The notes under the pieces are model-generated. The model made no database searches. It had not been told where the DNA came from and saw nothing but the letters and a program-made list of their open reading frames with translations. This document shows positions 4,913 to 53,257 of a stretch of 64,000 nt of DNA, piece after piece. Where the stretch lies: assembly GCA_963718575.1 (NCBI GenBank), contig OY970358.1, forward strand, positions 194,172 through 258,171, in the 5' to 3' direction. Origin of the DNA: an uncultured bacterium (lineage in GTDB: Bacteria; Patescibacteriota; Minisyncoccia; UBA6257; 2-01-FULL-56-20). Both the position numbers and the translations under genes were made by a program. Numbering within the stretch: the stretch's first letter is position 1; the number at the start of each line of letters is the position of its first letter.

Positions 4913-5476
4913 TTATTTGGAAGATGAAATTTCGATCAATCCGCCGCGGCCGCCCGGAACGGCGCCCTTAAGGAAAAGCAAATTGTTTTCTTTATCGATT
5001 GCGGCAACGACGAGGTTCTTGATCGTGACGCGGTCAACACCCATGTGTCCTGCCATGCGGCGGCCCGGGACGACGCGCTGGAAAGCGGTCGAGCCGATGG
5101 AGCCCGGCGCGCGGTGACGATTCTTCTGACCGTGGGTTTTAGGACCGCCGCGGAAGTTGTAGCGCTTGACGACGCCCTGGAAACCGCGACCCTTCGTGAT
5201 GCCGCTCACGCGCACCTTGTCGCCTTCTACAAACGAATCAACGCCGACCAAATCATCAATTTTTAACGTAGAAATATCCACCTTCTGATTGGGGCGGTTC
5301 TTGAACTCGCGCTTCTTCTTGCCCAACGTCAATTGGACGGCCTCATAGCCGTCGCGCTCTGCGGTGCGCACGATGGAAACCTTGTTCGGTTCCGCCTGGA
5401 CGACCGTAACCGGAAAGACTTTTCCGTCCTTCCAAATCTGCGTCATTTTAAGTTTTTTGCCTAAGATATATGACAT
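4913..5476 (-). CDS. rplC: 50S ribosomal protein L3
   Basis: MSYILGKKLKMTQIWKDGKVFPVTVV...GITKGRGFQGVVKRYNFRGGPKTHGQKNRHRAPGSIG is L3. The 24-codon upstream extension in the ORF track is likely non-coding. Start chosen at the conserved MxxILGKK. Confidence 0.9.
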   Translation of the reverse strand: MSYILGKKLKMTQIWKDGKVFPVTVVQAEPNKVSIVRTAERDGYEAVQLTLGKKKREFKNRPNQKVDISTLKIDDLVGVDSFVEGDKVRVSGITKGRGFQGVVKRYNFRGGPKTHGQKNRHRAPGSIGSTAFQRVVPGRRMAGHMGVDRVTIKNLVVAAIDKENNLLFLKGAVPGGRGGLIEISSSK

Positions 5477-5488
5477 TTTCTTGATCGT

Positions 5489-5564
5489 TTCCGAGTGAAG
5501 TACTATCTCCCTCACTACCGCGTAGGAACGCTCAAACGTTCGGGACACAGTACTTCACTCGGAA
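5489..5564 (-). promoter_or_regulatory. 16-bp perfect inverted repeat (ttccgagtgaagtact / agtacttcactcggaa, 44-nt loop) immediately upstream of rplC; candidate leader hairpin/attenuator
   Basis: Seen directly in sequence. Position is just 5' of the rplC start codon, at the junction between the inserted block and the rest of the S10 cluster. Confidence 0.4.
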
Positions 5565-5583
5565 AATCCAGTAATAAATTATT

Positions 5584-5611
5584 AAACTCCGGTTCTGACA
5601 CCGGAGTTTTT
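5584..5611. terminator. GC hairpin (ctccggt-tctgaca-ccggag) followed by TTTTT; intrinsic-terminator-like
   Basis: Stem-loop plus T-run in sequence. Lies between the NUDIX gene and rplC. Confidence 0.4.
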
Positions 5612-5804
5612 AGCACAATCAACCGACCTACCCCGCTTTTAGACGGGATCCAGAGAAAACGGCGACCGTTTTTCTGCGCCTGGCCCGCGAACACGTTTCG
5701 CGTTCATAGCCGAGGCATAAGGGGTAAATATTTGCATAAAAACTACCGAGCAAACCTTGATGACGATTATAGCAAAGCGGGCGGTAAAGTCAAATGGGGT
5801 CTCT

Positions 5805-5922
5805 GCCTCCTGGCTTCGCATACCCTTTTGAGGGACGGGTTCCGCGCTGCTGCGCGGCCCCTTACGCTCGCCGCCTTCGCGGCTCCGCGATACCCTCAAA
5901 AGGGTATGCGAAGCCAGGAGGC
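5805..5922. repeat. Structured repeat element, copy A: 30-bp perfect inverted-repeat arms around a 58-nt core
   Basis: Arms gcctcctggcttcgcatacccttttgaggg and its exact reverse complement. The core shares ~80% identity with the element at 51345..51459 (gttccg...ctgctg...cggcc...cctta.gctc...gccttcgcg..tccg) although the arm sequences differ. Confidence 0.6.
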
Positions 5923-5959
5923 CAAAATCACCGTTTGGCGTATGCGCCCGCTATGAAAA

Positions 5960-6409
5960 TTATTTTAGATGCTTTTCGAAATAAGCTCTATATCTTTCAA
6001 AAGTATAAGCAAAACCGCCATGAAGTGGCTGTGGTAATTTGTCTATTTTATACCATCCTAGCTCCTCGATTTTTTCCGGTTCTCCGTTCTTAACCTCCGC
6101 AGGGTCAACAAGTATGAAAAATGGCACGGCGATCCAATGGGTTTTGACGCCGTCTTGATCGCGAAAAATATCATGCGCTGGCAATTGTTCCTGAACAACT
6201 CCCTTACAGCCGTACTCCTCCATAACTTCTTTTAAAACGTTTTCCTCCAATGAAATTTCAAATTCCATTTTCCCCGAACCGGTATCCCATCGGCCATGTT
6301 CATCTCTGCACTTTATTGTTCGTTTGTGCATCAGAAGATTCCCCTTTCCGTCATGACAATAAAACGGGGTGGTAACTCCAATAAAATCAAAGCCGATTTT
6401 CATATGCAT
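5960..6409 (-). CDS. NUDIX hydrolase
   Basis: Nudix box GSGKMEFEISLEENVLKEVMEEYGCKG (Gx5Ex7REVxEExG). 149 aa. Local GC is clearly lower than in the ribosomal genes. Confidence 0.7.
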   Translation of the reverse strand: MHMKIGFDFIGVTTPFYCHDGKGNLLMHKRTIKCRDEHGRWDTGSGKMEFEISLEENVLKEVMEEYGCKGVVQEQLPAHDIFRDQDGVKTHWIAVPFFILVDPAEVKNGEPEKIEELGWYKIDKLPQPLHGGFAYTFERYRAYFEKHLK

Positions 6410-6462
6410 AGTTTATGATGGGAATTATGTACAGGCTAATAGAATTTGTGCCAATCTTGCAG

Positions 6463-7095
6463 TTAAAACAGATATCGCCCCGAAGCCCAGCCTCGCTTTC
6501 CGGGCGGCGCAATGGCTTTTACTGCGTTGCCATCTATATATAACTCATCCTGGACAATTTCGCCTTTTCGAATAGCTTCTTCCCATGCCTGAGTTGGTTC
6601 TTTACCCCACGGAAGCCATGGCGTCAGGTCGTCCATAATAATAACGGTGTCAGGGCGAGCAAGCGCTTTCATATTATCAATATCTGCTTTTACGATTTCG
6701 TACTCGTGACCGCCATCAATAAAGATGAGGTCGAATTTTTGATCGGGATTCTGCGCTGAAAATTCTGGCACTGTTTTTGTCGAATCGCCAAGAATGAGTT
6801 TGTGCCTTCCGGGAAATTTGCGATTAATAATTTGCTTTGCGCCGGAAACGAATGAATGCGTTCCGATATCGAATGAAACTACCGCTATATCCTTCCGCGC
6901 TTTAAGAAATGCATACGAAGAAAATCCAAGGTGAAAACCAATTTCTGCGATGCTTTTTACATTCGGCCGCTTTGCTGTTTTATAAAGATATTGTAATTCC
7001 TGCGGAGAAGAAGCTCCTTCATTGATTTTATAACCACGCAATCGAAGCTCCCCATAGATCAGTCCTTGCGCGATATTAAATCGAAACGAGTTCAT
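6463..7095 (-). CDS. Class I SAM-dependent methyltransferase (Methyltransf_24/TylF-CmcI-like)
   Basis: Glycine-rich SAM motif IAEIGFHLGFSS and DLIFIDGGHEYE, typical of the O-methyltransferase/CmcI family. AT-richer than flanking sequence. Confidence 0.6.
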   Translation of the reverse strand: MNSFRFNIAQGLIYGELRLRGYKINEGASSPQELQYLYKTAKRPNVKSIAEIGFHLGFSSYAFLKARKDIAVVSFDIGTHSFVSGAKQIINRKFPGRHKLILGDSTKTVPEFSAQNPDQKFDLIFIDGGHEYEIVKADIDNMKALARPDTVIIMDDLTPWLPWGKEPTQAWEEAIRKGEIVQDELYIDGNAVKAIAPPGKRGWASGRYLF

Positions 7096-7103
7096 TTATC
7101 GGA

Positions 7104-7661
7104 TTATTCGAGTATTATTTTAAGTAATTCCGGAAATTCCTCCGTTCGCACTTCGTCGTCTCCGGCATAGTGTCCCCTTCCTTTCAATTCGATGATTGTC
7201 CCGCCCAGGGCATCGTGAAACATTTTCAAACTTTTTTTGCCATTCTCCGCTTCGTTGTCGGCGGTGAACATGACGATGTTATTTACCCGCGATTTAATCG
7301 TTTCATCTATCGCATAATTATAAAACTTTATCTTCTCCTTGCTGCTCGTGCCGATCTTCCACGGGGCGACAAGAATAAGCTTATCGATTTTTCTCTTTGA
7401 ATCGCCAAGCCAACGGACGAGAAACGCGCATCCGCAGCTGTGCCCGATCAGCGTCGTCTCCTCGTTTATTTCTTTCTTTTCAAATTCCGATTTCCACTTC
7501 TCATAGCTCGGTACCCAAGACTCTGGCATTTGGGGTGTTGTGGCTGGTATGCCATGGGCAATCAATGTTTTTTGAATCCACGAGATCCAGTGTCTATCGT
7601 CTGGTTTTATATTCTCCTGCGGACCAGAGGAACATCCGTGGATAATGATTGCGTTTTTCAT
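7104..7661 (-). CDS. Alpha/beta-hydrolase, YdeN/RBBP9-like serine hydrolase
   Basis: Start chosen at MKNAIIIHGCSSGPQEN. GxSxG nucleophile motif GHSCG. The ORF-track N-terminal 70 aa is an alternative-frame read-through into the upstream gene. Confidence 0.55.
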   Translation of the reverse strand: MKNAIIIHGCSSGPQENIKPDDRHWISWIQKTLIAHGIPATTPQMPESWVPSYEKWKSEFEKKEINEETTLIGHSCGCAFLVRWLGDSKRKIDKLILVAPWKIGTSSKEKIKFYNYAIDETIKSRVNNIVMFTADNEAENGKKSLKMFHDALGGTIIELKGRGHYAGDDEVRTEEFPELLKIILE

Positions 7662-7668
7662 CTCGCTT

Positions 7669-8208
7669 CTACTTCCGCACCTCGATCCCGCCGAACACGG
7701 CGTCGCCGTGGATGACGAGCGTGACCGCGCCGTCGCCGCCTTGAGCGTTGCTTGTGTCCACGCCACCGAGGAAGACGTTCGCGGTGGAGACCACTTTCCA
7801 ATCCTTGGGGATGGTGATCTGGATGCCGCTGAATATTGATGAGACTTCGAGGTGGATCTCGCTGCCGTCAACCTTGACCTGGGTGAGGTCGATCTCGCCG
7901 CCGGAGAAGACCATGACGATCTTCCCTCCTTTAAAGTGCTCGGTAGCGTAGGAACGGTTCAGCGCGCTGAAAATGGCAACTTCGTCGATGGTGCGTTCGC
8001 CGGATGCGGGCGCTGCTGTGCCGTGGTCGTGACCATGATCGTGGTGATGATCATCCCAGTGCCAGCCGTCAGCCACCGAACGGCGCGCGATCATGCGAAC
8101 GCCGATCGCAATGAGGACGAGAGCAAAGAGAAAGCCGAAAAACGGGATGCCAGTGAGAGCGCTGATACCGATGAGTATTAAGATGATGCCAACGATGAGT
8201 CCTCCCAT
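7669..8208 (-). CDS. Membrane protein with LiaF-like/DUF2154 (toast-rack) C-terminal domain and a His-rich linker
   Basis: N-terminal TM helix. HWDDHHHDHGHDHG His cluster. C-terminal beta-rich repeat ...GEIDLTQVKVDG...VIHGDAVFGGIEV resembles cell-wall stress LiaF C-termini. Confidence 0.4.
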   Translation of the reverse strand: MGGLIVGIILILIGISALTGIPFFGFLFALVLIAIGVRMIARRSVADGWHWDDHHHDHGHDHGTAAPASGERTIDEVAIFSALNRSYATEHFKGGKIVMVFSGGEIDLTQVKVDGSEIHLEVSSIFSGIQITIPKDWKVVSTANVFLGGVDTSNAQGGDGAVTLVIHGDAVFGGIEVRK

Positions 8209-19142: not shown

Positions 19143-19157
19143 AACGAATACCAGAGA

Positions 19158-19186
19158 ATTGTAAGCGAGACGCGGTGTTATGTCAA
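19158..19186 (-). promoter_or_regulatory. str-operon promoter TTGACA-N17-TACAAT with ~15-nt leader before the rpsL ATG
   Basis: RC reads TTGACAtaacaccgcgtctcgctTACAATtctctggtattcgttATG. Confidence 0.55.
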
Positions 19187-19196
19187 ATAAAGCGCG

Positions 19197-19481
19197 CTAT
19201 CCCCGCTCCTCCACCACCCGGAGGCGGACGTCGAAATCCTTATTGGCGCCCTGGAGTTTAGAAATGTCTTCATTTGTGCGCACCGCATATGCAGAAAAGT
19301 GTGCATTAATGCCTTCTGTTACTTTGCGAAGATCCGCGATCGCCGCGAGAACTTCATCTTTAAATGACCTTAACTCATCTTTGGTGGCCATTCCGCCCAT
19401 CGTGGTCTTCATCTCTATCATCTCGGCGTGAACCACGTCGAAATCTTTTTGAATTGCGAGTGCTAATTTATCTATTGTCAT
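19197..19481 (-). CDS. Small coiled-coil protein, paralog family member 2
   Basis: 94 aa. ...GGMATKDELRSFKDEV... aligns with ...EGFMATAKDLLSLTERV... of 55026..55388. Shares its promoter with 8852..9232. Confidence 0.5.
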   Translation of the reverse strand: MTIDKLALAIQKDFDVVHAEMIEMKTTMGGMATKDELRSFKDEVLAAIADLRKVTEGINAHFSAYAVRTNEDISKLQGANKDFDVRLRVVEERG

Positions 19482-19487
19482 GCACTA

Positions 19488-19515
19488 ATTTTAGAGCGCG
19501 TGCAGAGAAAGTCAA
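19488..19515 (-). promoter_or_regulatory. Leaderless promoter TTGACT-N16-TAAAAT-N6-ATG, copy of the 9239..9266 promoter
   Basis: RC reads cattaaaaaatcctaaaaaagtttttgactttctctgcacgcgctcTAAAATtagtgcATG. Upstream A-tract motif is conserved with copy 1. Confidence 0.5.
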
Positions 19516-19614
19516 AAACTTTTTTAGGATTTTTTAATGAATTAATTCAATACACAGAATCACCTGCACTTTTCATTTTTCCCAACTCACGCTATAAATA
19601 GATGGTCGCAAATA

Positions 19615-19685
19615 GGGCCTTTAGCTTAGTGGTAGAGCAATCGGTTTGCATCCGATAGATAGGGGTTCGATTCCCCTAAGGTCCA
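19615..19685 (+). tRNA. tRNA-Cys (GCA)
   Basis: Manual cloverleaf: 7-bp acceptor stem (one G-U), anticodon loop tttGCAt, T-arm agggg-ttcgatt-cccct. No encoded CCA. Confidence 0.8.
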
Positions 19686-19706
19686 CATTGCGGCAATCCG
19701 ACTGCG

Positions 19707-20870
19707 GTGGCCGCGGAAAAATCTATCCCTAAAAAGGAGAAGGATACTACTGCGCTCCAACGGATACTTGGGCTTTGGATTATCGGCATTGCGGTTTTAA
19801 TATTTGGGTTGGAATTTTTATTTCCTTCACAATTTCTTGCCCTGAGTGCATTCATCAGTCAGATACCAAAGTTTTTTACGAGTTTTTCGCAGACAACGAT
19901 AACAGATCAAGGCGATGGAGCCCACGTCGTCAATATGCCCATACAAATGGGTCAGCCCGCGACGACGCAACCGCAGCCAGCTGCCAATCCGCTCGCCGTT
20001 CAGACAAGCAGCGCCGGAACATTTTATCCGCTCCAGCAAGTTAATCTTTGGGGCTATTCATTTTACACGAGCAAGATCGACGGGAGCGGAAGCATCGACA
20101 TAGGATCGAGCGCGAAGCAGACCATCGCTACTCTCCTATACGACATTGGCTATCCACATTCTCTGACAACCAACCTCGCCATCATCGACGCCGACCCGAC
20201 GCTCATGCAGCCGGGCGAATATATTGAAACCCCTTTTGCGAGCAATATCCCCGTTGCGATATCCAGCTTTCCTGAAAGCGGGTTATACGAACAAGTTGGT
20301 ATCGGATCATCCTATACGGGAGCGATCATTTACATGGATAGCACCAACAATTGGGATTTGGCCGTCCTGACCCACGAGCTGGGTCATAACATTGGTTTCC
20401 GCCTGACCGACGCGCAATGGACGGAGTATTACGAACTGCGCGGCATACCAGCGAACACGCCACGAGAGACGAGCAACTGGTATACGTCTCCCGAAGAAGA
20501 TTTTGCGGAAGTATTCAAAGCGACCTACGCGCAAGGCAGTGGCGGCGAGTGGAATATCAGAACATATTATGGCCCACTGATTTCGACAAATGATATTTAC
20601 GACGTTGAAAGTCCCTGTTACCCGTTGGAACAAACCGCCTTTCAAAATTTACTCGATACATGGAAGGAAAATAACAGCAGCACGTTTATGGTTCCGGCGA
20701 ATGTTATGACTGAATTTCAAGATCAAGCCCAATATGATCCGAAGGTGCAGGCGTGCCGACAAACCGATACTACGCAGTCGCCGTTCGGGGGCTCTATCTA
20801 CGAGAGAATTACTACCCCAGCGACGCAGGCGTTTATAAAAAGCGTCGTAGCGGGATTTGCTAAGAGTTAG
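19707..20870 (+). CDS. Membrane-anchored putative zinc metalloprotease (HExxH), hypothetical
   Basis: N-terminal TM helix ILGLWIIGIAVLIFGLEFLF. HELGHNIG zincin motif. GTG start right after tRNA-Cys. Confidence 0.4.
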   Translation: MAAEKSIPKKEKDTTALQRILGLWIIGIAVLIFGLEFLFPSQFLALSAFISQIPKFFTSFSQTTITDQGDGAHVVNMPIQMGQPATTQPQPAANPLAVQTSSAGTFYPLQQVNLWGYSFYTSKIDGSGSIDIGSSAKQTIATLLYDIGYPHSLTTNLAIIDADPTLMQPGEYIETPFASNIPVAISSFPESGLYEQVGIGSSYTGAIIYMDSTNNWDLAVLTHELGHNIGFRLTDAQWTEYYELRGIPANTPRETSNWYTSPEEDFAEVFKATYAQGSGGEWNIRTYYGPLISTNDIYDVESPCYPLEQTAFQNLLDTWKENNSSTFMVPANVMTEFQDQAQYDPKVQACRQTDTTQSPFGGSIYERITTPATQAFIKSVVAGFAKS

Positions 20871-21466
20871 ACATTCGCATATAGCGACCTCATCTTAGCA
20901 AGCGTGTCCTTATAGAAAGTATCAAAACTCCTGCTGCTAGATCGAAGCTTACCCATGTCGATCAATCGAACGATTTCTAAATGTACATCGTCATCGGTCT
21001 TGGTAATGTCGTCGTTGGATTTGCTGATCATGTAATGATACCTGTCTTTTGGTGAAATAATATCGCCGAATGGCAGTGGTTCGGTTCCTGCGAAGCCAAG
21101 GATATTTTTAATCGCATTCTCCTCGTCCAAAAACCACTCTTCTATCACTGGGTCCGGACATCCGACAACACCGAAGGAATGATCAATCCCCAAGAGACAC
21201 GCCTCCCTGACTAGCCGACGGACGTTTGAACATTTATGAGAATCGCCGTCCGTGTCGGTAACAAAAATCCCGAATGAGCATTCAGGCTTTATCTCTAAAA
21301 ATAAACCAAGCGCCGCTTCGATCGATGATTTCGTTATCGATCCATCCGCCGTCTTCACTCTAAACTTTATTTCCTCCGTTATTCCGGCATCAATGGCGAT
21401 GCGTTTTATCAATTCCTTCAGGGTCTTATCGTCAAATGTTCCTTCGCAATGAATGCCTACTAACAT
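20867..21466 (-). CDS. TOPRIM-like nuclease-domain protein (DUF4276/RloB-like), partner of the upstream ATPase
   Basis: 199 aa. N-terminal ...VGIHCEGTFD (conserved Glu) and FVTDTDGDSH (DxD) are arranged like TOPRIM. AT-rich relative to the genome. Confidence 0.5.
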   Translation of the reverse strand: MLVGIHCEGTFDDKTLKELIKRIAIDAGITEEIKFRVKTADGSITKSSIEAALGLFLEIKPECSFGIFVTDTDGDSHKCSNVRRLVREACLLGIDHSFGVVGCPDPVIEEWFLDEENAIKNILGFAGTEPLPFGDIISPKDRYHYMISKSNDDITKTDDDVHLEIVRLIDMGKLRSSSRSFDTFYKDTLAKMRSLYANV

Positions 21467-21475
21467 GGAAAGCGG

Positions 21476-22585
21476 TTACAGATTATTGATGTAGTCTGTC
21501 ATCTTCCCGCCTCTCTCCAACATTTTTTGTATGCTGGTAGCCTGTGCACTTTCACTCAAGAGAGTAAGCTCCGTCCCTTTATCATTTTTTTCGGCTAGCA
21601 CTACTTCGTGAACTGGAAGGCGATTGATTACCAAAGGGCTGTGGGTAGTAAAAAGAATTTGCATATTTTTTATTGTTGCAATTTTTCTTAGATGGTCGAT
21701 CAACTCGTTGATCCGATGGGGGTGGATGCCGTTTTCTATCTCCTCAATTATAAGCGACGAATGCTCGTTGAGCTTGATCGCTTCGCCGATAAGGTAGAGT
21801 GTTCGAAGATCACCAGCCGAGAGCAACTTCATTGAAAGCATTCTTTTTAGGTTATGCTCTTGCATCAAAACCAAATACTGCTGTTCAGCCGGATTACCGG
21901 ATGCCTTGAGCTCCACTTCCTTGAAAGCTGAAATTGAAGGGATCATCTTTTTGCTGATGTCGATAAAATTCTTGTATAACTCTGGCTTGTGATTTAGCCA
22001 GACCAAAAGACTTGCCAATGACTCCTCGCTGCTACCCACACTCCCAATGGAGTCGCTGACCTCAAAATATTCTTTGGTTATATAAACATCAGAAAATATT
22101 TTTCTTATCCCGGCGGCGTCTTCCTGATTGAAGAGTGCCGTAGCCAAACGCTCGTTATCGATTGCAAGAGGCACCGGATTTCCGGCGGCATCGGTTAAGC
22201 TATTCTGTTTCCGCGTATAAACAGGAGCTTGCACTCCATCGATTATTTTTTCCAACTTCTCTGATCGGATGACAGTTGACTGATTTCCGGAGAGCAGCTC
22301 GACAGAAAAATCCAATATGTACTTTCCACCATTAGAAAGATTTATCTTTATAGAAAACTCAGACGAAACATCGCTTGCATTAAAAAGTTCGTTCTGCGTA
22401 AGGCTCATCTTTGCCGCCGCCTTGGGAAGACTGTCGCCAGCCACTAAGCTTTTCACGAGCAGCAATGCTTGGATGAGGTTGGTTTTACCAACAGCGTTCT
22501 TTCCCACTACGGCACCAAAAGAAGGCAAACTAGCGCTGCTTTTCTGAAAGCTTTTGAAATTAACGATCTCTATGGAGTTAATCAT
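21476..22585 (-). CDS. ABC-type ATPase of the AAA_15/AAA_21 (RloA/AbiLi/AriA/OLD N-terminus-like) class
   Basis: Walker A GKNAVGKT. Walker B/D-loop LIIEEIENGIHP. H-loop FTTHSPLV. 369 aa, AT-rich. 9 nt upstream of the TOPRIM-like gene. Confidence 0.7.
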   Translation of the reverse strand: MINSIEIVNFKSFQKSSASLPSFGAVVGKNAVGKTNLIQALLLVKSLVAGDSLPKAAAKMSLTQNELFNASDVSSEFSIKINLSNGGKYILDFSVELLSGNQSTVIRSEKLEKIIDGVQAPVYTRKQNSLTDAAGNPVPLAIDNERLATALFNQEDAAGIRKIFSDVYITKEYFEVSDSIGSVGSSEESLASLLVWLNHKPELYKNFIDISKKMIPSISAFKEVELKASGNPAEQQYLVLMQEHNLKRMLSMKLLSAGDLRTLYLIGEAIKLNEHSSLIIEEIENGIHPHRINELIDHLRKIATIKNMQILFTTHSPLVINRLPVHEVVLAEKNDKGTELTLLSESAQATSIQKMLERGGKMTDYINNL

Positions 22586-22811
22586 TTAAGCCATTTATAT
22601 ATTATCACACTTTGGAGATGATGTTCTTATGAATACAATATCTTGCTCCATTTTTATCTCCGTTGCAATGGCACCGCCATGATACCACTCGGCCATTAAA
22701 AAACAATTAATTAGACCAGCGCCGACGAGATCCATAATCCTTGCCAAGATCCCAGCGCGATGATAATGTTGTGCCAGCAGGTATTCACATTCCAACGAGG
22801 AGAGAAAGAGC

Positions 22812-23786
22812 ATGGAAAATACACACAGCACCCAACGGTTTGCCGTGGGAACGATCCCAGATATTCCATTGGGGCTCATCCGGCCCTTTCGGAATCAACC
22901 TCGCAAACACTTCGACCAAAAAGGATTGGAAGAGCTCGCCGCGAGCATCAAGGAAGAGGGACAGATAACGCCAGCATGGGTGATGCCCATCTTCGACGAT
23001 CCGGTGATCGAGTACGAGCTTATCGCAGGAGAACGCCGGTGGCGTGCCTGTGGGATAGCGGGAATAGCAACGCTGCGAGGAGAAATCCGCGCACCAGAGA
23101 CCGCAGCGAAGCAGTATCTCGACTCCGTAATGGAAAACTTCGGAAGAAGGGATTGCACGCATCTCGAAACCGCGCGGGCGATCGAAGAAATGCGGCGTAT
23201 CCATTTTGGAGAAAAACCAGAGTGGGGCGAAAAAGTTACGGAAAAACTCGCCAAGATCTTCGTCCATTCCACCGCGTGGATCAACCAGTACCGGAGCCTT
23301 CTCCGACTTCATCCCGAAGTACAGGCCATGATGGAGCCGGGGGTTGAGGAAAAACAGCGGCTTCCGTTTCAGGTCGCGATCGCGTTGGCAAACTTGGAGC
23401 AGGAATCGCAGCTTACCATCGCACGGCATATCGTCGGGGAGGGTTTGAGACTCAAACCAGCGCTTGCCCATATCCGTGCGGAAGTTAGCGATGATATACG
23501 TATCAAGAAGAATGGTCGGCGTGGACGTCCACACAGGGACTACGACGTTCTGCGAACCTTCCTGAAAAGTCTGGGGGAAGGAGCGGAAGGATTGCTTAAT
23601 ATGTCCCACAAGACATTTGAGGAGATGTTCCGCCACCGGCCAGTACGAGAACTTCAGAACGTCATTGAGGTCTTGAAAAAAAGGCAGGGTCAGCTCAAAG
23701 ATCTTGAGCAGGCACTGCGCCGTGTATCGGTTCCTAATGAAGGTCAACGGCCCGTCTTGATAAGCAGAGCCGCTGGCGAACGTTAA
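22812..23786 (+). CDS. ParB/Sulfiredoxin N-terminal domain protein
   Basis: ...IPLGLIRPFRNQPRKHFDQKGLEELAASIKEEGQITPAWVMP...YELIAGERRWRAC matches the ParB-like nuclease/NTPase domain. 324 aa, helical C-terminal half. Confidence 0.6.
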   Translation: MENTHSTQRFAVGTIPDIPLGLIRPFRNQPRKHFDQKGLEELAASIKEEGQITPAWVMPIFDDPVIEYELIAGERRWRACGIAGIATLRGEIRAPETAAKQYLDSVMENFGRRDCTHLETARAIEEMRRIHFGEKPEWGEKVTEKLAKIFVHSTAWINQYRSLLRLHPEVQAMMEPGVEEKQRLPFQVAIALANLEQESQLTIARHIVGEGLRLKPALAHIRAEVSDDIRIKKNGRRGRPHRDYDVLRTFLKSLGEGAEGLLNMSHKTFEEMFRHRPVRELQNVIEVLKKRQGQLKDLEQALRRVSVPNEGQRPVLISRAAGER

Positions 23787-23815
23787 TGCCATTCAACTTC
23801 GGAAAGGAGAAGTAT

Positions 23816-24460
23816 ATGTCGATAGCACCTCGGCCGCAGCAGGTCAATCAGGATGCGCTCATCGAACGCGCGCAACAGGGAGATTCTGCTGCGTTCAAGG
23901 AGCTCTATGAACTTCATAAGAGACAGGTGTACCGCATCTGCTACAGAATGGTTAAAAACCAAGCTGATGCAGAAGATTTGGTGCAAGAAGCCTTTCTCCA
24001 ACTTTTCCGCAAGTTGAAACTGTTTCGCGGTGAATCCCAGTTCAGCACTTGGTTTCACCGCCTCGTGGTAAATGTTGCGCTGATGAAACTCCGCAGGAAA
24101 GACGGTCGATACGACGTCTCCCTCGACGAACTTGTGGAGGTTGGCGACGGCGAGCTCCAGCGGGAGGTTGAGTCCATCGACCATCATCTGAGGTTGTCGC
24201 CCGAACGTATCGCAGTGGGAAAAGCCATCGAACAGCTGCCTCCGGGCTACCGCTTGATCCTTCGGATGCACGATCTCGAAGGGTTTGAGCATAACGAGAT
24301 TGCGGAGATCCTTGGATGCAGCATCGGCAACTCAAAGTCCCAACTCCATAAGGCGAGGGCAGCACTCCTTTCTCTCCTTGAGGTCAAACTTGATCCACTT
24401 TCAATCCTTGTTAATTTCGATAAATTTTTGTCGGACAACGGGAATGAGAGCATACAATAA
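23816..24460 (+). CDS. ECF-type RNA polymerase sigma factor (sigma-70 regions 2 and 4)
   Basis: ...FKELYELHKRQVYRICYRMVKNQADAEDLVQEAFLQLF... (region 2) and ...YRLILRMHDLEGFEHNEIAEILGCSIGNSKSQLHKARAAL (region 4). GGAAAGGAGA RBS. 30 nt after the ParB-like stop. Confidence 0.8.
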   Translation: MSIAPRPQQVNQDALIERAQQGDSAAFKELYELHKRQVYRICYRMVKNQADAEDLVQEAFLQLFRKLKLFRGESQFSTWFHRLVVNVALMKLRRKDGRYDVSLDELVEVGDGELQREVESIDHHLRLSPERIAVGKAIEQLPPGYRLILRMHDLEGFEHNEIAEILGCSIGNSKSQLHKARAALLSLLEVKLDPLSILVNFDKFLSDNGNESIQ

Positions 24461-24488
24461 AAAGCCATCTGTAGTTAGGTGAAATTCT

Positions 24489-24536
24489 AAAAGCTCGGCA
24501 CCAAAAATTGCCGAGCTTTTTCTTTTAAATTAGTCC
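24489..24536 (+). terminator. Intrinsic terminator (agctcggcaccaaaaattgccgagct + T-run)
   Basis: Follows the sigma factor gene. Confidence 0.65.
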
Positions 24537-24549
24537 GAATATCCTCTAC

Positions 24550-24960
24550 CTACCCCCGCTCCGTGTGGTCAACAATATTATTGTTAATCATTCCGACAGC
24601 CTGTGATAAGCGCTTCCACTTTACTTTCAGCTCAGCATATTTTTCGGGCGCGATATTTGTCTCGTCTTTAATAAGCTGCAATTTTTTATAAATAGGATTT
24701 AATGCCTGCTTGGCAGGTTCTCTTATTGGATGATGAGGTGCTTCCGCTGGCGTAAGGTTCATAACGGCATTCAACGCCGCCAGGTCATGGGTCTGCTCAA
24801 AGCTTTCAAACATCCCTTCGAGTTCTTCGACTTCTGGCCCGCATTCCCGACGCTTCTCTGCGGGGATTTCTTCGGTGGCATACTTCGCCAGCCATTCATT
24901 AATCACCTCTTCCTGTTCCTCGCTGAAGTTTTCGCTGTTCTTCTCGGGATTCTCGTTCAT
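24550..24960 (-). CDS. Hypothetical acidic protein (136 aa)
   Basis: ORF only. No recognisable motif. Confidence 0.3.
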   Translation of the reverse strand: MNENPEKNSENFSEEQEEVINEWLAKYATEEIPAEKRRECGPEVEELEGMFESFEQTHDLAALNAVMNLTPAEAPHHPIREPAKQALNPIYKKLQLIKDETNIAPEKYAELKVKWKRLSQAVGMINNNIVDHTERG

Positions 24961-25077
24961 TCCATGATCTTAGCATAAAATCTTTAACATCATCCGCTAG
25001 CCCGCTCCGCTGCTAATTGTTGCCATTCCTGCATTTCGGCTATAAACTGGCTCCAATGGACTCGCAGGTAGTCCACC

Positions 25078-53140: not shown

Positions 53141-53211
53141 CGGGCCGTAGTATACCGGCAGTACGAGCGCATGGGGTGCGTTTAGACCGGGTTCGATTCC
53201 CGGCGGCCCGA
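53141..53211 (+). tRNA. tRNA-Pro (GGG)
   Basis: Manual fold with C1:G72 acceptor pair (typical of bacterial tRNA-Pro), anticodon loop atGGGgt, T-arm ccggg-ttcgatt-cccgg. Confidence 0.55.
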
Positions 53212-53257
53212 CAATCAGAAAAAGAAAAGGGATGGTCTTTCGGCCATCCCTCGTCGA

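Follow-up and report, generated by a model that had tools for sequence, protein, structure and literature searches.

What does a compact, AT-rich gene pair do in the genome of an uncultured member of the Patescibacteriota, and how did it get there? The pair lies in a 64,000-nucleotide (nt) stretch of contig OY970358.1 (assembly GCA_963718575.1, positions 194,172 to 258,171; hereafter the window). It consists of a gene for an ATP-binding cassette (ABC), SMC/Rad50-head-like ATPase of 369 amino acids (aa) from the AAA_15/AAA_21 family (21476..22585, minus strand) and a gene for a divergent DUF4276/HEC-01B-like predicted TOPRIM nuclease of 199 aa (20867..21466, minus strand). A first-pass annotation, made by a model from the letters of the window, had seen in these two open reading frames (ORFs), placed 9 nt apart, a candidate two-component defence system, probably acquired horizontally; the spacing agrees with the coordinates. 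We consider the identity of the two proteins and their acquired status very likely to be right. Taken as a whole, the defence mechanism included, the two genes probably form an acquired operon of an ABC ATPase and a stand-alone DUF4276-lineage TOPRIM protein, of the class of HEC-01 (Hma-embedded candidate 01; Payne et al., bioRxiv 10.1101/2024.01.29.577857) and PDC-M25. This answer is carried by the domain identities, the conservation of catalytic residues, the strict pairing of the genes in unrelated contexts and their inserted, compositionally foreign location. Profile searches, structure, synteny and composition all support the core of the first-pass interpretation, which went wrong over the identity of a nearby tRNA and over the background base composition.

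An ABC-type ATPase head

What kind of ATPase is the larger protein? It matches Pfam AAA_21 (2.2e-21) and AAA_15 (4.8e-18), the architecture that had been proposed from its motifs. A Walker A motif (G28-K34-T35), a signature (S256-x-G258-D259), Walker B and catalytic glutamates (E281-E282) and an H-loop (H315) can be assigned, and G28, G33, K34, S256, G258, D259, E281, E282 and H315 are invariant across 28 aligned homologs. The strings quoted in the first-pass annotation (GKNAVGKT, LIIEEIENGIHP and TTHSP for the ATPase, HCEG and DTDGD for the small protein) are all present in the translations, on columns that are invariant or conserved in at least 90% of the family; their place on the invariant columns shows that they did not arise by chance.

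Among the PADLOC profiles, PDC-M07A (6.8e-34), AbiLi (4.5e-30), the HEC-01A profile PDLC04176 (4.6e-29, in one stretch, residues 2-347 onto 3-348 of 371), PDC-M25A (7.2e-23, residues 1-324), AriA (2.5e-22) and mad3 (4.6e-18) match the ATPase, as do nine more HEC-01A profiles at 1e-20 or better. The NCBIfam model MAD3 gives 2.5e-26 and 92.8 bits, below its cut-off of 420 bits, and the matches to NCBIfam PtuA and RecF are sub-threshold. A sequence comparison with solved structures puts retron/Septu PtuA and a class 1 OLD nuclease nearest, with a match confined to the C-terminal 80 residues. Structure comparison puts the SMC and Rad50 heads at the top (21-22.5), followed by PtuA (20-20.6) and AriA of PARIS (19.0), with lower figures for T. 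scotoductus OLD (16.1), RecF (14.3) and GajA (13.7). Because of the profile matches and of this comparison, led by SMC and Rad50 heads, the 369-aa protein is an ABC-type ATPase head without long coiled coils, not an AAA+ protein. The same distinction has been drawn for the ATPases of HEC-01 to HEC-04 (Payne et al., bioRxiv 10.1101/2024.01.29.577857).

Could such a head belong to a housekeeping repair pair? RecF (an ABC ATPase of ~360 aa) and RecR (a Toprim protein of ~200 aa) would be the obvious model, and another SMC/Rad50-like repair module would be a variant of the same idea. However, the structural similarity to RecF is lower, the small protein shows no RecR features and the pair is absent from relatives, which makes a repair role scarcely credible. 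Membership of RecF/RecR was rejected, and so was the reading of the larger protein as the ATPase of an ABC transporter.

A small partner with a candidate Toprim site

Who is the partner of this ATPase? Against Pfam DUF4276 (PF14103, gathering threshold 30.2 bits) the 199-aa protein scores a sub-threshold 12.9 bits (E 0.14, residues 7-185 onto 1-188 of 192), and the PADLOC HEC-01B profile PDLC04196 gives a weak 14.1 bits (E 0.0083, residues 7-192 onto 8-192 of 197); no significant match was found in NCBIfam and none in PHROGs. A word-indexed protein search returned just two relatives (38-40% identical). Among 1.84 billion representatives a profile search gave 271 at E <= 1e-3, nearly all of them 185-205 aa long, and 133 of these were aligned and tested against the curated profiles. 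DUF4276 is matched by 50 of the 133 (counted at E <= 1e-3; best 8.5e-19), one HEC-01B profile by 78 (best 3.7e-16) and PDC-M25B by 40. In addition, the syntenic small proteins of four neighbourhoods described below (L010, L007, L001 and L012) match HEC-01B at 5e-9 to 3e-4. Because the weak alignments run over the full length and the relatives match DUF4276 and HEC-01B, the small protein is predicted to be a divergent member of the DUF4276/HEC-01B lineage, with a DUF4276 link that is transitive. The first-pass label 'DUF4276-like' thus stands by way of the relatives, whereas the protein itself falls short of the Pfam model.

Neither the small protein nor its 133 relatives match RloB (PF13707), AbiLii, DUF4435 or AriB in Pfam and PADLOC. 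Among PDB sequences a profile search returned no homolog of solved structure for the small protein, and Foldseek had no significant match in the PDB. One alignment of the small proteins (A1) also had no match in a scan of a genome collection made up of species representatives, to which neither the window's genome nor the Peregrinibacteria one thus belongs.

Is the small protein equipped to be a nuclease? Its AlphaFold (AF2) model (pLDDT 96.4, pTM 0.91) consists of four beta-alpha units, with strands at residues 2-7, 34-39, 65-69 and 99-102, and after them a C-terminal part made of helices. All 133 homologs share E8, D71, E109 and K140, and at least 90% of them keep G4, D12, D73 and W111. In the model E8 lies in the beta1-alpha1 loop and D12 one helical turn further, D71xD73 follows directly on beta3, E109 is at the first helix past beta4, and K140 stands at the start of a later helix in the helical part. 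The marks of a Toprim nuclease, as taken from PMC12065111 and PMC6755086, are found here: a glutamate in the beta1-alpha1 loop, a DxD after beta3 and a four-strand alpha/beta core. In B. pseudomallei OLD the residues E400, E404, D455/D457, E508 and K562 bind two Mg2+ and contact the scissile phosphate (PMC6755086), and E8/D12/D71/D73/E109/K140 of the small protein repeat the order of E400/E404/D455/D457/E508/K562. We propose E8, D12, D71, D73, E109 and K140 as candidate catalytic residues. Independently, DUF4276 and HEC-01B have both been assigned to Toprim in published work (PMC12065111; bioRxiv 10.1101/2024.01.29.577857). The predicted Toprim identity draws on the residue pattern, the family links and these two published assignments, not on fold rank alone.

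Two genes that travel together

Does the pair hold together elsewhere? In 10 out of 10 neighbourhoods the ATPase gene is followed 5-13 nt on, on the same strand, by the small-protein gene, with an AAA_15/AAA_21 ATPase of 368-392 aa and a small protein of 186-204 aa. The neighbourhoods are the window with its metagenome copies, L001 (a Peregrinibacteria metagenome-assembled genome, MAG), L007 (GCA_027423255.1), L010 (GCA_040960095.1), an ENA contig, L011, L012, L150, L151 and L152. In tblastn searches the downstream genes of the other neighbourhoods are homologs of the small-protein gene, and the identities of ATPase and small protein drop in parallel, from 52%/41% to 42%/35%.

The flanks of the pair vary among all the neighbourhoods. 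In L001 it stands beside Bro-N and a holin, and on the ENA contig its neighbours are an integrase, an rve transposase and HepT/MNT. Directly upstream of the L011 pair lies a gene for a LexA-domain/Eco57I-N6_Mtase-family protein of 612 aa, and a faint Abi_C match is found two genes downstream of the L012 pair. In L151/L152 (5642-7851, minus strand) the pair adjoins genes for an SLFN-g3 (Schlafen-like) helicase and a MazG-like protein, with which it may form a small defence cluster. Missing ATPase and TOPRIM profile links, or homologs kept in syntenic housekeeping contexts, had been named at the outset as grounds for dropping the defence idea. What was found instead are profile links to both families and contexts that are unrelated to one another and often of a mobile or defence flavour. 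A distant relative (ATPase identity 28%) comes from the Acinetobacter NDM-1 plasmid pNDM1_010055 (L093; NZ_CP032284.1, 29932-31800), where a PDC-M25A/B pair lies between pglX and pglZ of BREX-1.

Could the pair serve mainly itself? A selfish addiction or toxin-like module, in which a TOPRIM toxin restrained by the ATPase would mainly stabilise the inserted segment, would suit the homologous pair that adjoins HepT/MNT (a toxin-antitoxin pair) and a transposase. It would also suit the mobile-element-like genes of the insert (ParB-like and sigma factor, both with matches to phage families), the missing phage protection from the HEC-01 prototype, and the Pfam description of AAA_21 as AbiEii, a putative toxin from a toxin-antitoxin system of type IV. 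On the other hand, plasmids hold no close relatives of the pair, and defence has been demonstrated for the related ABC ATPase and TOPRIM systems PARIS, Gabija and OLD. Addiction is, moreover, compatible with abortive-infection defence, so that the two are not mutually exclusive. We consider the selfish role unlikely, and defence remains the reading that we follow below.

The 612-aa protein of L011 (4863-6701, minus strand) deserves a separate word. Its domains are LexA_DNA_bind, Peptidase_S24 and N6_Mtase/Eco57I methyltransferase, by which it is predicted to join a LexA-like repressor to a restriction-modification-type methyltransferase, an unusual fusion.

A foreign-looking insert between rpsL and an M50 peptidase gene

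How did the pair reach this genome? The elongation factor EF-G encoded in the window is 71-72% identical to EF-G of Colwellbacteria and other Patescibacteria MAGs, and the protein is found on a contig of 881 kb; the host is therefore assigned to the Candidate Phyla Radiation (CPR), as a Parcubacteria-type bacterium. Twenty-seven Patescibacteria loci have both an M50 peptidase gene and rpsL, with the former upstream and the two on one strand; only 177-400 bp separate them in 20 of these loci, against ~5.9 kb in the window. This variable insert between rpsL and the M50 gene (19143..25077, GC content 47.6%) carries the two-gene module together with a 94-aa ORF, a tRNA-Ala, a 387-aa HExxH membrane protein, a ParB-like protein, a sigma factor of the extracytoplasmic function (ECF) type and a 136-aa ORF. 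Since seven relatives (L015, L028, L032, L035, L044, L076 and L078) hold other, unrelated cargo of 0.8-3.9 kb at the same place, the M50-rpsL junction is a variable spot in Patescibacteria.

Composition tells the same story. The module has a GC content of 43.8%, which puts it at the 0.6th percentile among windows of its size, and by tetranucleotide deviation it ranks at the 99th percentile, so that the GC and tetranucleotide check proposed in the first-pass annotation came out as expected there. The module is indeed AT-richer than its surroundings; the background of ~58% given for comparison, however, holds for the flanking housekeeping genes only (56-58%), the mean of the whole window being 52.9%. 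With an insert that the host's relatives lack and a deviant composition, horizontal acquisition of the module, claimed from the start, is well supported.

A tRNA gene one gene away had been taken for tRNA-Cys and counted in favour of acquisition. ARAGORN and Rfam (tRNA, 72.5 bits) identify it as tRNA-Ala with anticodon UGC (19615..19686, plus strand), at that same distance from the module. Nine relatives have no tRNA between M50 and rpsL, and tRNA-targeted integration is thus unsupported.

The cargo that others carry at the junction is diverse in its own right. In L032, for example, it is a 650-aa fusion protein and a helix-turn-helix protein, in L035 a secreted protein of 842 aa, and in L078 a CBS protein together with a secreted HExxH metalloprotease of 638 aa.

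Which known system does the pair resemble?

HEC-01, an ABC ATPase (HEC-01A) with a TOPRIM protein (HEC-01B) catalogued in PADLOC, has the same two-gene order, sizes, adjacency and orientation. The ATPase and the small protein of the window each align end to end with the HEC-01A and HEC-01B profiles, and the Toprim metal-site residues are conserved in the small protein too. The differences are that the small protein of the window forms a divergent branch (E 0.0083), that the pair lies outside any Hma system and that its host belongs to the Patescibacteria. PDC-M25, a PADLOC candidate of A and B components embedded in BREX, DISARM and type I restriction-modification systems, shares the ATPase match and the partner matches (40/133), whereas PDC-M25B is longer (~245 aa) and matches only the C-terminal two thirds of the small-protein family.

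Might the module be a piece of something larger that has already been described? MADS comprises several genes, one for a methyltransferase among them, and its Mad3 (ABC ATPase) and Mad4 (DUF4276) have the same domain pairing as the module. The ATPase of the window, however, is far below the MAD3 equivalog cut-off (92.8 vs 420 bits), and no methyltransferase adjoins the module, whose neighbours are the HExxH protein, the ParB-like protein and the sigma factor; a MADS fragment was rejected on these grounds. In the literature, the PARIS paper puts 'MADS3-4' among the ABC ATPase and TOPRIM systems, and the Menshen paper (PMC12065111) describes Mad4 as a DUF4276 homolog and DUF4276 effector domains in Menshen.

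The other candidates differ in the partner or in the gene arrangement. PARIS joins AriA, an ABC ATPase larger than that of the module, to AriB, a DUF4435 TOPRIM protein of 35 kDa (vs 199 aa), and was rejected in view of the missing DUF4435/AriB matches among the small protein and its relatives. AbiL (AbiLi and AbiLii) and RloA-RloB come closer on the ATPase side, where AbiLi matches, and AbiL likewise pairs an ABC ATPase with a Toprim-superfamily protein; the missing RloB and AbiLii matches led to their rejection. Because its partner is neither DUF4435 nor RloB, the module is not PARIS, AbiL or RloA/B in a strict sense, and from the first-pass proposal of an OLD-family-like two-gene system the pairing of ABC ATPase and TOPRIM protein survives while these names do not. 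In OLD class 1 (P2 Old) and in class 2/Gabija GajA, a single fused polypeptide contains both ATPase and Toprim, and a UvrD-like helicase is the partner of class 2 OLD. The fused family was rejected for a module of two separate ORFs that has no helicase gene adjacent.

The best catalogue fit is HEC-01/PDC-M25, related to Mad3-Mad4, with a borderline score for the B component. Published work already contains the pairing of an ABC ATPase with DUF4276 (HEC-01, the PDC candidates, 'MADS3-4', Menshen), and the module is a divergent addition to a known, functionally unproven candidate defence class. This agrees with the early remark that the partner is not among the well-characterised defence families, its nearest neighbours being the catalogued, unproven HEC-01 and PDC-M25, and the kinds of system known are unchanged by it. 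What it adds is a clean, intact example of an ABC ATPase with a DUF4276-TOPRIM partner whose place of insertion in a Patescibacteria (CPR) genome is well delimited. A further gain is the definition of a subfamily, with about 270 small proteins as representatives and largely missed by the Pfam DUF4276 model, that is useful for improving defence-finder profiles and for choosing constructs with which to test HEC-01-type defence.

How might the pair work?

Taking OLD, Gabija, PARIS and Septu/retron PtuA as analogues, we infer a defence role, a contact between the two proteins, a trigger and a substrate. The ATPase would dimerise or oligomerise through its SMC/Rad50-like heads, act as sensor or regulator and keep its TOPRIM partner in check. 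A cue from the invader, perhaps a protein of the phage or nucleic acid of abnormal structure, would lead to ATP binding or hydrolysis, by which the nuclease would be released or activated. The TOPRIM protein would then cut nucleic acid by two-metal catalysis, with E8/D71/D73 holding metal A, D12/E109 metal B, and K140 contacting the scissile phosphate. Would it cut DNA, as OLD and GajA do, or rather tRNA or other RNA, as AriB and RNase M5 do? Either may be the substrate, and in the end phages or mobile elements would be kept from replicating, perhaps at the expense of the cell.

Several points weigh against a defence module of this kind. No member of the exact family has been shown to defend, and the HEC-01 prototype, the one representative of HEC-01 that has been assayed, protected against no phage tested in E. 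coli (bioRxiv 10.1101/2024.01.29.577857). The 199-aa protein is under the threshold of every curated model. The structure check recommended for it in the first-pass annotation yielded a confident model with the OLD order of residues, but generic three-layer alpha/beta folds score equal to or above Toprim for this model, and the match to OLD is one of order along the chain and secondary structure. As for mobility, the insert has neither an integrase nor att-like repeats, a direct-repeat search having given chance-level repeats of 13-17 nt only, and phage, plasmid and IMG/VR collections hold no close relatives of either gene, the searches returning distant AAA_15/21 ATPases only. Finally, the pairs of L007 and L010 are flanked by plain housekeeping genes.

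Could the compact pair, an ABC ATPase of ~370-385 aa with a DUF4276-like TOPRIM protein of ~190-200 aa, be more than a divergent HEC-01? Its close relatives so far come from metagenome assemblies, at least some of them of the Candidate Phyla Radiation. A functionally distinct, self-sufficient OLD-like class, providing abortive-infection or RNA-targeting immunity in ultra-small episymbiotic bacteria, is a rather improbable extension. If it were true, for example with tRNA cleavage as in PARIS, a host-specific trigger or target would explain why the HEC-01 prototype is silent in E. coli.

Neighbouring genes and other features

Does the pair act alone? Divergent from the ATPase gene, across an intergenic region of 226 bp (22586..22811, GC 41.6%), lie a ParB-like gene and an overlapping gene for the ECF-type sigma factor (22812-24460, plus strand; ParB_N 4.5e-17). 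The stop codon TGA of the ParB-like gene ends at 23786, where the ATG of the sigma-factor gene starts, an overlap of one base. The ParB-like gene is an orphan, without ParA nearby, and it and the sigma factor both match phage protein families. On the other side, the gene for the 387-aa protein (19707-20870, plus strand; N-terminal membrane anchor, HELGH zincin-like motif, weak Peptidase_M57/M43 matches) is convergent with the TOPRIM gene, their 3' ends overlapping by 4 nt; among the fetched loci this protein has no homolog except in copies of the window contig.

This tight packing inside one insert, and the 226-bp region shared by the ParB-like and ATPase genes, would be expected if the pair were only part of a larger system with the ParB-like protein and sigma factor, or with the convergent HExxH protein, and ParB-like domains are known from some defence contexts (PMC12065111). 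Yet the neighbours accompany the pair in none of its other contexts, their tblastn matches being copies of the same contig only, and their GC content is 51-54% vs 44% for the module. A larger system is therefore very unlikely, and the two-gene operon is preferred.

The 226-bp region is, by its position only, the presumed promoter region of this operon; a sigma-70 consensus scan of 22586..22811 found no site. Is the module then a decaying remnant that no longer functions in its host? The lack of a consensus promoter upstream, and of an integrase or att sites in the insert, would be in keeping with decay. Both ORFs, however, are intact and of full length, with all the invariant family residues present, and the same protein sequences recur in several independent metagenome assemblies. 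Loss of function is accordingly a highly improbable explanation.

One metagenome copy of the window contig (L003, JGI 3300077761) has RecG, S12/S7 and EF-G split into several short genes when compared with the window and with L004; the breaks look like the product of an assembly rich in indels, not of biology. Two further low-GC patches lie in the window, with ordinary accessory genes and no defence genes: NUDIX, methyltransferase, serine hydrolase and LiaF-like genes at 5200-8000, and at 51100-54000 genes for two proteins without a Pfam match (443 aa and 150 aa), which adjoin a tRNA-Pro gene (53141-53212).

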